This document shows, piece by piece, positions 1 to 2,400 of a stretch of DNA of 2,400 bases (positions within the stretch are counted from its first letter, which is position 1; each line of letters begins with the position of its first letter). The stretch is from Escherichia coli (lineage in GTDB: Bacteria > Pseudomonadota > Gammaproteobacteria > Enterobacterales > Enterobacteriaceae): NCBI RefSeq assembly GCF_003334255.1, contig NZ_QOWU01000135.1. One strand, written 5' to 3'. The notes under the pieces are model-generated. The model made no database searches. It worked only from the letters and a program-made list of their open reading frames with translations, and was not told the DNA's origin. The translations under genes were made by a program, and so were the position numbers.

Positions 1-22
1 AAAAACGAGTATTTTTAGTCAT
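1..22 (-). CDS. IS3-family transposase OrfA, N-terminal 7 codons only (MTKNTRF...), 3' part outside window
   Basis: ATG at 22-20 on the minus strand, preceded by AGAGG (minus strand, positions 35-31) at suitable spacing. The translation MTKNTRF is the characteristic start of IS629/IS1203-type OrfA. Only 22 nt are in the window, so the call rests on context. Confidence 0.5.
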
Positions 23-30
23 CCTGTTTA

Positions 31-35
31 CCTCT
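31..35 (-). promoter_or_regulatory. Shine-Dalgarno (AGAGG) for the IS3-family orfA
   Basis: AGAGG on the minus strand, 8 nt upstream of the ATG at 22-20. Confidence 0.45.
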
Positions 36-101
36 TTCTCAGGGAGTTTAGTCTCCAGGATTTCCGGGGCGGTTCAATCTGATATAGACGGACATCTAAG
101 T

Positions 102-527
102 ATGGAATTACAGGACTGGCGAAAAGAACCTCGTAAAAACTATTCGAATGAATTCAAACTTCGTATGGTGGAACTGGCATCACAACCTGGAGCTTGTGTT
201 GCACAGATTGCACGTGAAAATGGCGTCAATGATAATGTTATTTTCAAATGGCTCAGGCTCTGGCAGAACGAAGGGCGTGTTTCGCGGCGTCTTCCGGTAA
301 CGACCTCTTCTGACACTGGCGTTGAATTATTACCTGTAGAAATAACGCCGGATGAGCAGAAAGAACCTGTGGCGGCCATTGCGCCGTCTTTATCCACTTC
401 CACTCAGACCAGAGTCAGTGCCAGTTCCTGCAAGGTGGAATTCCGTCACGGTAACATGACGCTGGAAAATCCATCGCCAGAGCTGCTCACGGTGTTGATC
501 CGTGAACTGACCGGGAGGGGGCGATGA
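102..527 (+). CDS. tnpA: IS66-family TnpA (Orf1), small helix-turn-helix DNA-binding protein, 141 aa
   Basis: ORF track 102..527. The N-terminal segment NYSNEFKLRMVELASQPGACVAQIARENGVNDNVIFKWLRLW has the transposase-type HTH signature. It sits immediately upstream of tnpB and overlaps it by ATGA. The start at 102 is the first in-frame ATG but has a weak RBS; the frame stays open upstream, so the true start is uncertain. Confidence 0.85.
   Translation: MELQDWRKEPRKNYSNEFKLRMVELASQPGACVAQIARENGVNDNVIFKWLRLWQNEGRVSRRLPVTTSSDTGVELLPVEITPDEQKEPVAAIAPSLSTSTQTRVSASSCKVEFRHGNMTLENPSPELLTVLIRELTGRGR
514..518 (+). promoter_or_regulatory. Shine-Dalgarno (GGAGG within GGGAGGGGG) for tnpB, embedded in the 3' end of tnpA
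   Basis: GGAGG at 514-518, 5 nt upstream of the tnpB ATG at 524. Confidence 0.55.
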
Positions 528-874
528 TCTCGCTCCCATCAGACACTCGAATCTGGCTGGTTGCCGGCGTTACTGATATGCGTAAATCCTTCAACGGTCT
601 GGGTGAACAGGTACAACATGTGCTGGATGAGACCCCCTTCTCCGGTCACCTGTTCATCTTCCGTGGCCGACGGAGTGACATGATTAAAATCCTCTGGGCT
701 GATGCTGATGGTCTGTGCCTGTTCACCAAACGCCTGGAGGAAGGCCAGTTTATCTGGCCTGCGGTGCGTGACGGTAAGGTATCCATTACCCGCTCGCAGC
801 TGGCAATGCTCCTCGATAAGCTGGACTGGCGTCAGCCAAAAACATCCCGTCTTAACGCACTGACAATGTTGTAA
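524..874 (+). CDS. tnpB: IS66-family Orf2 / TnpB accessory protein, 116 aa
   Basis: ORF track 524..874. The translation MISLPSDTRIWLVAGVTDMRKSFNGLGEQVQ...IFRGRRSDMIKILWADADGLCLFTKRLE is the highly conserved IS66 Orf2 sequence. The ATG at 524-526 overlaps the tnpA TGA at 525-527, and a strong SD lies upstream. Confidence 0.9.
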   Translation: MISLPSDTRIWLVAGVTDMRKSFNGLGEQVQHVLDETPFSGHLFIFRGRRSDMIKILWADADGLCLFTKRLEEGQFIWPAVRDGKVSITRSQLAMLLDKLDWRQPKTSRLNALTML

Positions 875-904
875 AAATGTCATGGCCGGATTATAAAAAC
901 GGTC

Positions 905-2400
905 ATGAGTCGGAAATACCTCATTCGTATCACTGAGCTGGAAAGGCTGCTCTCTGAGCAGGCTGAAGCCCTCCGTCAGAAAGACCAGCAACTGAGTCTG
1001 GTTGAAGAGACGGAAGCCTTCCTGCGCTCTGCACTGACACGTGCCGAAGAAAAGATCGAAGAAGATGAACGGGAAATAGAACATCTGCGGGCTCAGATAG
1101 AAAAACTGCGCCGGATGCTGTTCGGTACCCGTTCTGAAAAACTGCGTCGTGAAGTTGAACTGGCTGAGGCTCTGCTGAAACAACGTGAACAGGACAGCGA
1201 TCGTTACAGTGGGCGGGAAGACGATCCTCAGGTTCCCCGCCAGTTGCGACAGTCGCGCCATCGTCGTCCGTTACCGGCACACCTTCCCCGTGAAATACAC
1301 CGCCTGGAGCCAGAAGAAAGCTGTTGCCCGGAGTGTGGCGGTGAGCTGGATTATCTGGGGGAAGTCAGCGCTGAACAGCTGGAACTGGTGAGCAGTGCCC
1401 TGAAAGTGATCCGCACAGAACGGGTAAAAAAAGCCTGTACAAAATGTGACTGTATTGTTGAAGCACCGGCGCCGTCCCGCCCGATAGAGCGTGGTATCGC
1501 GGGCCCCGGATTACTTGCCCGCGTGTTAACGGGAAAATACAGCGAACATCTGCCACTGTATCGTCAGAGTGAAATCTTTGCCCGCCAGGGTGTCGAACTG
1601 AGCCGGGCCTTACTCTCCAACTGGGTTGACGCGTGCTGCCAGTTAATGACACCGGTGAATGATGCCCTGTACCGTTATGTAATGAACACCCGCAAGGTTC
1701 ACACTGATGACACACCGGTAAAGGTACTGGCACCGGGTCAGAAAAAGGCGAAAACAGGGCGTATCTGGACGTATGTCCGGGATGATCGCAATGTGGGTTC
1801 GTCATCTCCTCCAGCGGTCTGGTTCGCGTACTCGCCGAACCGGCAGGGGAAACACCCGGAGCAACACCTCCGCCCCTTCCGGGGTATCCTGCAGGCGGAT
1901 GCGTTCACAGGTTACGACAGGTTGTTCAGTGCAGAACGTGAAGGTGGTGCACTGACAGAAGTTGCGTGCTGGGCCCATGCCCGGCGAAAAATCCACGATG
2001 TATACATCAGCAGCAAAAGTGCGACGGCAGAAGAAGCCCTGAAGCGAATCAGTGAACTGTACGCCATCGAGGATGAAATACGGGGATTACCGGAGTCAGA
2101 GCGTCTTGCCGTCAGGCAGCAGCGAAGCAAAGTGTTACTGACGTCGCTGCATGAATGGATGGTGGAGAAGAATGGTACGCTGTCGAAAAAATCCAGACTG
2201 GGCGAAGCGTTCAGCTATGTACTGAATCAGTGGGATGCCCTCTGTTATTACAGTGATGACGGTCTGGCGGAGGCGGATAATAATGCTGCGGAAAGAGCGC
2301 TTCGTGCAGTCTGTCTCGGAAAGAAAAACTCTTATGACCTTTGTCAAATATTGAGCCCAAAAAGACCTTACGCAGCTCCGGGAGCTTCGTTATATCGCGG
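905..2400 (+). CDS. tnpC: IS66-family transposase TnpC (DDE transposase), 3'-incomplete in window; the last ~23 codons diverge from the conserved family sequence
   Basis: Frame 2 is open from the ATG at 905 to the window end, and my own translation confirms it. The N-terminal region is a charged coiled coil (ELERLLSEQAEALRQKDQQL...IEHLRAQIEKLRRMLFGTRSEKL) containing the IS66 FGxxSEK motif. Candidate catalytic residues are D at 1706-1711 (HTDDTPV), D at 1898-1900 (ILQADAFTGY) and E at 2291-2293 (NNAAERALR). The start has no obvious SD. Confidence 0.85.
   Translation, partial: MSRKYLIRITELERLLSEQAEALRQKDQQLSLVEETEAFLRSALTRAEEKIEEDEREIEHLRAQIEKLRRMLFGTRSEKLRREVELAEALLKQREQDSDRYSGREDDPQVPRQLRQSRHRRPLPAHLPREIHRLEPEESCCPECGGELDYLGEVSAEQLELVSSALKVIRTERVKKACTKCDCIVEAPAPSRPIERGIAGPGLLARVLTGKYSEHLPLYRQSEIFARQGVELSRALLSNWVDACCQLMTPVNDALYRYVMNTRKVHTDDTPVKVLAPGQKKAKTGRIWTYVRDDRNVGSSSPPAVWFAYSPNRQGKHPEQHLRPFRGILQADAFTGYDRLFSAEREGGALTEVACWAHARRKIHDVYISSKSATAEEALKRISELYAIEDEIRGLPESERLAVRQQRSKVLLTSLHEWMVEKNGTLSKKSRLGEAFSYVLNQWDALCYYSDDGLAEADNNAAERALRAVCLGKKNSYDLCQILSPKRPYAAPGASLYR
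1322..1453 (+). other. Cys-rich zinc-ribbon motif within TnpC (CCPECGG ... CTKCDC)
   Basis: Translated cysteines at codons starting 1322, 1325 and 1334 (SCCPECGG) and at 1436, 1445 and 1451 (CTKCDC), spaced as in the IS66 transposase zinc-finger domain. Confidence 0.6.

Follow-up and report, generated by a model that had tools for sequence, protein, structure and literature searches.

A candidate promoter for a leaderless transposase mRNA in the tnpB-tnpC gap of IS66-family insertion sequences

The 2,400-nucleotide (nt) stretch of Escherichia coli DNA analysed here in its entirety (contig NZ_QOWU01000135.1; hereafter, the window) carries what is, to judge by its sequence, a truncated and dead IS66-family insertion sequence of the ISEc23 type, with the genes tnpA, tnpB and tnpC. 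This report concerns the short gap between tnpB and tnpC. With a probability of roughly 0.55, this spacer acts as a compact internal promoter of the sigma70 type that gives rise to a leaderless tnpC messenger RNA (mRNA), and contains a hairpin that masks the tnpC AUG in transcripts reading through from tnpA and tnpB. The proposed layout consists of a -35 box, TTGTAA (869-874), 17 bp, a -10 box, TATAAA (892-897), and a further 7 bp leading to A905, the first base of the tnpC start codon. Transcription would start on this A, give or take a base or two, and ribosomes would initiate on the 5'-terminal AUG of the leaderless product with no Shine-Dalgarno (SD) sequence to guide them. The features on which the argument depends are as follows, with the hairpin arms being those found in both the minimum-free-energy and the centroid structures.

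869..874, + strand: -35-like hexamer TTGTAA, overlapping the 3' end of tnpB (final sense codon plus TAA stop)
880..888, + strand: 5' arm of the hairpin (UCAUGGCCG), within the promoter spacer and 5' of the proposed +1
892..897, + strand: -10-like hexamer TATAAA, within the hairpin loop, 17 bp 3' of the -35 box and 7 bp 5' of A905
900..908, + strand: 3' arm of the hairpin (CGGUCAUGA), holding the tnpC AUG
905..907, + strand: tnpC start codon; A905 is the proposed +1 and follows C904, giving a pyrimidine at -1 and a purine at +1

Such an arrangement would account for two peculiarities of the junction. Firstly, tnpC would have no ribosome-binding site because its message starts at its ATG. Secondly, the -35 box includes the tnpB stop, and the 3 + 17 + 6 + 7 = 33 nt from T872 to A905 would therefore make both the 30-nt spacer, and the reading frame shared by the two genes, by-products of the promoter's geometry. 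Whether this extends to the whole family is an evenly balanced question: IS66-family tnpC may generally be leaderless and transcribed from a conserved promoter in the gap, apart from the coupled tnpA-tnpB pair, with fold-back silencing of read-through tnpC in enterobacterial elements.

Promoter-like geometry anchored on the tnpC start codon

An earlier note on this DNA had pointed out that the tnpB stop and the ATG at 905 are in the same frame, with an open spacer between them, and that no convincing SD precedes this ATG. Direct reading of the sequence bears out the first observation: 30 nt separate TAA 872-874 from ATG 905-907, the distance of 905 - 872 = 33 keeps the frame, and the spacer reads as ten sense codons with no in-frame stop (AAA TGT CAT GGC CGG ATT ATA AAA ACG GTC, or KCHGRIIKTV). 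ATG 905 is the first ATG, GTG or TTG in frame past the stop, with the following Met around 70 codons further 3'; the equivalent ATG is taken as the tnpC start by the NCBI annotation pipeline (PGAP) in eight related records, while alignments of homologous TnpC proteins begin at residue 1. Read from the sequence, ATG 905 is the only plausible tnpC start, confirming its annotation. The second observation was also correct, as within the 20 nt upstream of this ATG no anti-SD duplex is stronger than -3.3 kcal/mol, compared with -11.2 kcal/mol for tnpB. The lack of an SD means tnpC needs an unconventional route to initiation.

The relatives with which the junction was compared were gathered from E. 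coli genomes, plasmids (a tblastn search yielding at least 5000 records, enterobacterial), 80 loci in a genome collection spanning 100,044 species, and a further 80 loci in viral contigs. The viral-contig loci were mostly near-identical copies of ISEc23 or ISCro1, which added no wider phylogenetic breadth and were useful for clade variants only. Family-level counts rest on 40 non-redundant IS66-family junctions.

Four types of evidence point to a promoter that is positioned relative to the tnpC start codon. Firstly, the window itself contains a candidate. TTGTAA (4/6 consensus positions) and TATAAA (5/6) are separated by 17 bp, within the 17 ± 1 bp expected of sigma70 promoters, and this pair ranks first of the 23,650 placements scored with position weight matrices (PWMs) across the whole window and both strands. 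ATG 905 also has the sequence characteristics of a leaderless start, being an AUG with no SD and with a -10-like box in the range of 6-8 nt upstream, the gap here being 7 nt.

Secondly, when the family's junctions are aligned on the tnpC ATG, the conserved positions fall where canonical sigma70 numbering would put them if +1 were the A of the start codon. There is a T at -35 in 30/40 junctions, a T or C at -34 in 34/40, and a C at -32 in 21/40; an A at -11 in 24/40 and a T at -7 in 21/40, with positions -12 to -9 rich in A/T; and a C at -1 in 26/40, followed by an A at +1 in 39/40, the assigned start being ATG in 39 of the 40.

Thirdly, both boxes are specific to this register. The -10 PWM exceeds 3 bits in the register -14 to -12 in 29 of 40 junctions (28 when one start codon that was re-assigned by hand is left out), whereas the control rates are 1.7/40 when the offset is changed, 1/40 for the starts of tnpB, and 2.2% for ATG triplets internal to tnpC. 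Given the -10 box, the -35 PWM peaks only at a spacing of 17 bp, where it exceeds 2 bits in 20/40 junctions, relative to 0-6 at spacings across the range 8-29. The distance from the -10-like box to the ATG is steady at 6-8 nt, while that from the tnpB stop to the ATG runs from 19 to 125 nt. Across the family, this box retains T1, A2 and T6, and tolerates G or C at positions 4 and 5 (TAAGCT, TAGACT, TAAACT, TATACT).

Fourthly, the absence of an SD is itself a family trait. SD-like tetramers occur at 2/40 tnpC junctions, in both cases within a TATAGG box, and an anti-SD duplex at least as strong as -4.4 kcal/mol precedes 3/40 tnpC genes, compared with 22/39 tnpB genes.

The same pattern is evident at a finer scale. 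Among 12 distinct junction variants of the ISEc23 clade, neither box changes and ATTATAAAA is constant, while the DNA between the boxes varies. Elements from Oxalobacteraceae and Acerihabitans also have TTGTAA, 17-18 bp 5' of their -10 box. Of 54 junctions from the ISEc23/IS682/ISKox1 clade, 52 have a 30-nt spacer, and the two exceptions, of 29 and 31 nt, both shift the frame: the shorter keeps the 17 bp and has a final gap reduced to 6, and the longer has an 18-bp spacer followed by a 7-bp gap. In the Solimicrobium silvestre locus L038 (2843-2896), there are two copies of TTGTAA, of which one is at the tnpB stop and the other precedes a TAAACT box by exactly 17 bp. As apparent natural experiments, these three variants support selection having acted on the geometry, rather than on the frame. 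The doubling in L038 looks like an insertion that was compensated by duplication of the -35 element.

Two other groups of relatives have distinctive junctions. In alphaproteobacterial loci, such as L025, L031, L041, L069, L076, L085 and L089, a strongly conserved GGATTC(A/C)C supplies the -35-like box (TTCACN/TTCCCN); the GGA 5' of this box goes beyond a plain hexamer, and might bind a regulator. In ISCro1 (L009:2556-2580), an SD-like GAGGA stands 1-2 nt before the ATG, inside a 6-bp stem (GUGAGG/CCUCAC) that has the AUG in its loop. The same bases can be read as TAAAGT, 6 nt and ATG, such that SD-led and leaderless initiation are not distinguishable in the ISCro1 subgroup.

A hairpin over the tnpC start codon

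The RNA of the window's spacer folds into a 9-bp stem, pairing 880-888 with 900-908, that starts 5 nt past the tnpB stop and has the -10 box in its loop (z scores of -2.7 to -3.7 relative to shuffled sequences). As the 5' arm lies 5' of the proposed transcription start, this hairpin would form only in RNA that reads through tnpA-tnpB-tnpC, or that is initiated outside the element. The predicted folds agree with this: an RNA beginning at 905 has its 5' AUG unpaired, and one beginning at 872 forms the hairpin (z -2.7), with the AUG paired. In the enterobacterial clades, the AUG would hence be masked, and lack an SD, in any transcript that reads through, the element's own tnpA-tnpB mRNA among them, which would amount to fold-back inhibition of the kind associated with IS10 and IS50.

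Relatives retain a stem in a variety of forms. In ISKox1, a G-C pair is replaced by A-U through a double change, and a tenth pair is added (z -5.2). The stem of canonical ISEc23 re-registers as ACUC.UGACCG/CGGUCA.GAGU (z -5.4). ISEc8 has an unrelated 9-bp stem at the same place (z -2.9), beginning 27 nt past the stop. When the fixed 9-bp structure is imposed on the 12 clade variants, covariation is modest, consisting of two double-change pairs, with 10/500 shuffles reaching the score; when folded individually, the clade variants show re-registered stems instead of the fixed one. No match to Rfam was found across the window at E<=1.

A family-wide hairpin occluding the AUG, first suggested by ISEc23, ISEc8 and ISCro1, was considered and rejected: the mean pairing probability was 0.51, relative to 0.50 in dinucleotide shuffles (n=40).

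Weighing the promoter against other explanations

A number of points weigh against a promoter in the gap. A scan of the window for consensus promoters and terminators did not call the one proposed for the spacer, and found no terminators. Judged by an A at position 2 and a T at position 6 of the -10 box, the window's TATAAA falls short, having an A at position 6, although many relatives do fit TAnnnT (TAAAAT, TAATAT, TAAACT, TATAGT, TATACT). The PWMs were built from approximate frequencies given in the literature. The junctions share descent, and nearly all of the 40 come from Proteobacteria, so inheritance could account for some of the signal. The starts of five genes were moved by hand once N-terminal conservation had been seen, and two of these genes belong to the non-redundant set. 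The hairpin burying the AUG is a clade-level feature, not a family hallmark, and the Acerihabitans copy has lost the stem. No mapped IS66-family transcription start was found in the literature. Leaderless mRNAs are poorly translated in E. coli, and they are also rare in enterobacteria: 10-18 genes have a transcription start site exactly on the start codon (PMC3415461), and a compilation puts leaderless genes at ~0.5-1.4% of the total (PMC6161684).

The most credible alternative, though a distinctly less probable one, is termination-reinitiation, which was also the suggestion of the earlier note. In this case tnpC would be translated only from the polycistronic tnpA-tnpB-tnpC mRNA: a ribosome ending at UAA 872-874 would melt 880-888, thereby freeing the AUG, and restart without an SD. 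This is consistent with tnpC having no SD, with the hairpin burying the AUG just 5 nt past the stop, in reach of a terminating ribosome, with the preservation of this hairpin through compensatory changes in the clade, and with the clear coupling of tnpA to tnpB by an ATGA overlap and a strong SD. Yet the distance from stop to ATG ranges over 19-125 nt across the family, and the ISEc8 hairpin is 27 nt past its stop. Furthermore, stop-restart usually involves an overlap or a few nucleotides, generally with an SD, rather than a 30-nt gap with none, and SD-less reinitiation across 30 nt or more is generally inefficient. Nor does reinitiation predict boxes anchored on the ATG, with their T/A/T signature and 17-bp periodicity. 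Hence the part of the earlier suggestion that required an unconventional route stands, as there is no SD, but reinitiation is not the favoured route, as the boxes are fixed to the ATG. A separate, leaderless transcript for tnpC would be the better explanation, since the conserved elements are laid out like a promoter and keep their distance from the ATG, rather than from the stop codon of tnpB.

A second alternative, and a rather doubtful one, concerns the hairpin part of the proposal only. The inverted repeat around the -10 box (GGCCG...CGGYC) could be a DNA operator, at which, for example, the helix-turn-helix protein TnpA might repress the tnpC promoter. Inverted repeats at or around the -10 box recur in unrelated spacers (ISEc8, L071, L041, L031, L087, L044 and L133), and compensatory changes would preserve a DNA palindrome equally as well as an RNA stem. 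However, G-U pairs (G885-U903) and re-registered stems (L008) suit RNA pairing better than a fixed palindrome, and the sequences of the arms differ between clades.

Less probable still is SD-independent internal initiation, with the A/U-rich box in the hairpin loop (AUUAUAAAAA) serving as a site for ribosomal protein S1 or a standby ribosome. An A/U-rich element is found directly 5' of the AUG in most family members, and, lying in a hairpin loop, it would be single-stranded in the ISEc23 clade and ISEc8. Nevertheless, the retention of T1, A2 and T6, with G or C allowed at positions 4-5, is the signature of a -10 element rather than of plain A/U richness; no role is given to the second box 17 bp upstream, or to the preference for C-1 and A+1; and the AUG is itself paired in the hairpin.

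The last alternative arises from the shared frame, which is not beyond what chance would produce, and is accidental. The probability of two genes sharing a frame is 1/3, and that of a shuffled spacer of the same composition being stop-free is 0.44, giving a joint value of ~0.15. Conservation of the same-frame arrangement and the spacer length across IS66-family copies, which the earlier note had proposed as a check, is not found: the frame of tnpC relative to tnpB (0:1:2) is distributed 14:10:16, spacer length ranges over 19-125 nt, and the spacer is stop-free in only 8/14 of the frame-0 junctions. Homologues with tnpC in another frame, named beforehand as the result that would contradict the idea, include ISCro1 (19-nt spacer, frame +1) and ISEc8 (49 nt, frame +1). 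A Massilia element has a 30-nt spacer (frame 0), and its Oxalobacteraceae sisters have 29 nt. The spacer "codons" vary at all three positions among relatives, with no constraint seen at the protein level, and neither a conserved in-frame downstream reading frame nor an open, constrained spacer is apparent in the family. The window's stop is UAA followed by A, one relative (L082) carries TAATAA, and the stops of the family (TAA 17, TAG 16, TGA 7) show no preference for leaky types.

Readthrough of UAA 872-874 to make a functional TnpB-TnpC fusion, as the earlier note had speculated from the two same-frame reading frames with no stop between them, is therefore rejected as at most noise, given the random frames, the 29- and 31-nt variants inside the clade, the unconstrained spacer, the UAA-A context of what is the most efficiently terminated stop codon, and an inspected fused protein (P0143) that proved to be a deletion fusion. 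Among the other longer TnpB proteins in the databases that were tried as natural readthrough fusions, P0146 is an unrelated N-terminal fusion, and P0001 and P0002 were rejected as products of internal duplication. These last two are E. coli TnpB variants, of 146 and 137 amino acids (aa) respectively, with internal tandem duplications of 21-30 residues, and are annotated as ordinary TnpB. For annotation more generally, the case cautions against attaching significance to neighbouring genes that share a frame.

The surrounding element and comparison with known systems

The remainder of the window contains the following features.

1..76, - strand: end of an IS3-family (IS1203/IS629-like) element, sitting in the left end of ISEc23, the first 59 nt of which it replaces
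102..527, + strand: tnpA, IS66-like accessory protein, 141 aa; an open reading frame annotated by PGAP, matching NCBIfam NF047595 at 83 bits (cut-off 74)
513..521, + strand: strong SD of tnpB (GGGAGGGGG), read from the sequence; anti-SD duplex of -11.2 kcal/mol
524..874, + strand: tnpB, IS66 accessory protein, 116 aa, with the stop TAA at 872-874; an open reading frame matching NF033819 at 119.8 bits (cut-off 50)
905..2331, + strand: tnpC, IS66 DDE transposase, truncated; NF033517 at 397.8 bits (cut-off 180), profile positions 4-346 of 387
2332..2400, no strand assigned: foreign DNA breaking tnpC, the end of an insertion of the IS110-family element ISEc45; breakpoint from alignment to intact ISEc23

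The gene order of TnpA, TnpB and the DDE transposase TnpC, with all three above the curated NCBIfam cut-offs, identifies the element as a member of the IS66 family, and 77-2400 is matched with 100% identity by DNA on E. coli plasmids that is annotated as ISEc23. DNA related to the element is present in 4320/5426 complete E. coli genomes. Both termini are absent: an intact element would start with GTAAGCG, and the intact relative L173 has the ends GTAAGCG...CGCTTAC, but homology to ISEc23 extends only from 77 to about 2331.

At the left end, comparison with ISEc23 copies places the beginning of homology at 77, and bases 1-110 match sites annotated "IS3-like element IS1203 family transposase" that adjoin IS66 tnpA. 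The IS1203-like insertion is 25 bp 5' of the tnpA ATG, and the GTAAGCG inverted repeat was lost with it. The insertion may also have removed a -35 box of tnpA, as by eye the intact L173 has TTGGTA, 18 bp and TATAGA. In the window, a TATAGA box is 13 nt 5' of the tnpA ATG, so tnpA does not have leaderless geometry. It too has no good SD, with an anti-SD duplex of -3.2 kcal/mol in the sequence upstream (ATATAGACGGACATCTAAGT, window 82-104).

At the right end, tnpC is a PGAP pseudogene "missing C-terminus", and its homology to intact ISEc23 tnpC stops at about 2331. Plasmid NZ_CP060062.1 is 100% identical to the window at 2332-2400, with an ISEc45 transposase just 3'. Several E. coli plasmids, NZ_CP060062.1 among them, carry the ISEc23::ISEc45 junction with 100% identity, and the IS1203 insertion is an addition in the window's genome.

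Two observations on relatives concern other parts of the family's biology. A single genome, that of Roseibium sp. TrichSKD4, contains more than 20 near-identical copies of one IS66-family element (L044-L066), indicating a recent burst of transposition. In loci L002-L004 (76-90% identity), 401 query bases match 380; as the spacer length is the same in these loci, the difference corresponds to a 21-nt in-frame indel in the N-terminal coiled-coil region of tnpC (about 905-1100 of the window), and not in the spacer.

Few insertion sequences are more abundant in E. coli than those of the IS66 family, which are also widespread in Proteobacteria. The coincidence of frame is itself ordinary in this well-known family; the new part appears to be the conserved promoter geometry, for which the support is computational. 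No description of a leaderless gene, or of a tnpC promoter, in the IS66 family was found in the searchable literature, and the main text of a study of transcription starts in E. coli and Klebsiella (PMC3415461) does not mention transposases among its leaderless genes. Were the proposal true, the DDE transposase would have its own regulation, separate from that of TnpA and TnpB, and initiation that depends neither on an SD nor on the host in many lineages would explain how IS66-family elements function in hosts with differing ribosome-binding rules. It would also make the -10 box and the hairpin arm a simple experimental handle on the control of transposition, and would revise the view, reportedly the published one, that all three genes are coupled and that the intergenic regions have no common feature.

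That view is attributed to Han et al., who in 2001 reportedly found that IS66-family tnpC may occupy any of three frames with respect to tnpB, and are said to have inferred that tnpA, tnpB and tnpC are all translationally coupled, with intergenic regions that have no common structural features. The organisation they reportedly described is the one seen here, of three genes in which the tnpB ATG overlaps the tnpA TGA, with tnpC following after a short gap. The variable frame is reproduced by this analysis, but the tnpB-tnpC gap is found to have a conserved geometry of -35 box, 17 bp, -10 box, 6-7 bp and ATG, which suggests a separate tnpC transcript.

Classical translational coupling, through ATGA or TGATG overlaps or through unmasking of the MS2 and trp type, describes the first two genes well. 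The tnpB ATG (524-526) overlaps the tnpA TGA (525-527) in an ATGA, a -1 frame change, and with the strong SD this makes tnpA and tnpB clearly a textbook case of coupling, as read from their sequence. The tnpC hairpin by the tnpB stop resembles structure-mediated coupling, yet the gap it occupies is 30 nt with no SD, and 19-125 nt in relatives.

Leaderless mRNAs are known from mobile elements of E. coli, in the form of lambda cI transcribed from PRM and tetR of Tn1721. The proposed tnpC transcript would resemble these in having a 5'-terminal AUG with no SD, a near-universal ATG, and a -10 box whose distance from the start codon is short and constant, although its transcription start is a predicted one. 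GeneMarkS-2 and Zheng et al. in 2011 reportedly use a similar criterion, predicting leaderless genes where a -10 box precedes the start codon by about 6-8 nt.

Fold-back inhibition of transposase translation was reportedly described for IS10 and IS50 by Davis, Simons and Kleckner in 1985, and by Krebs and Reznikoff in 1986. As in those elements, the transposase start would be paired with upstream sequence only in RNA initiated 5' of the gene's own promoter, which is here a matter of prediction. There are differences, however. The transposase mRNAs of IS10 and IS50 have a leader and an SD, whereas the proposed tnpC transcript is leaderless. The gene that would be protected is the third inside the element, such that the element's own tnpA-tnpB mRNA would be among the blocked RNAs. 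Only some IS66 clades have the hairpin, which is recognised from sequence and predicted folds. The proposed tnpC control would combine two known devices, the leaderless mRNA of mobile elements and fold-back inhibition, within a single compact spacer.

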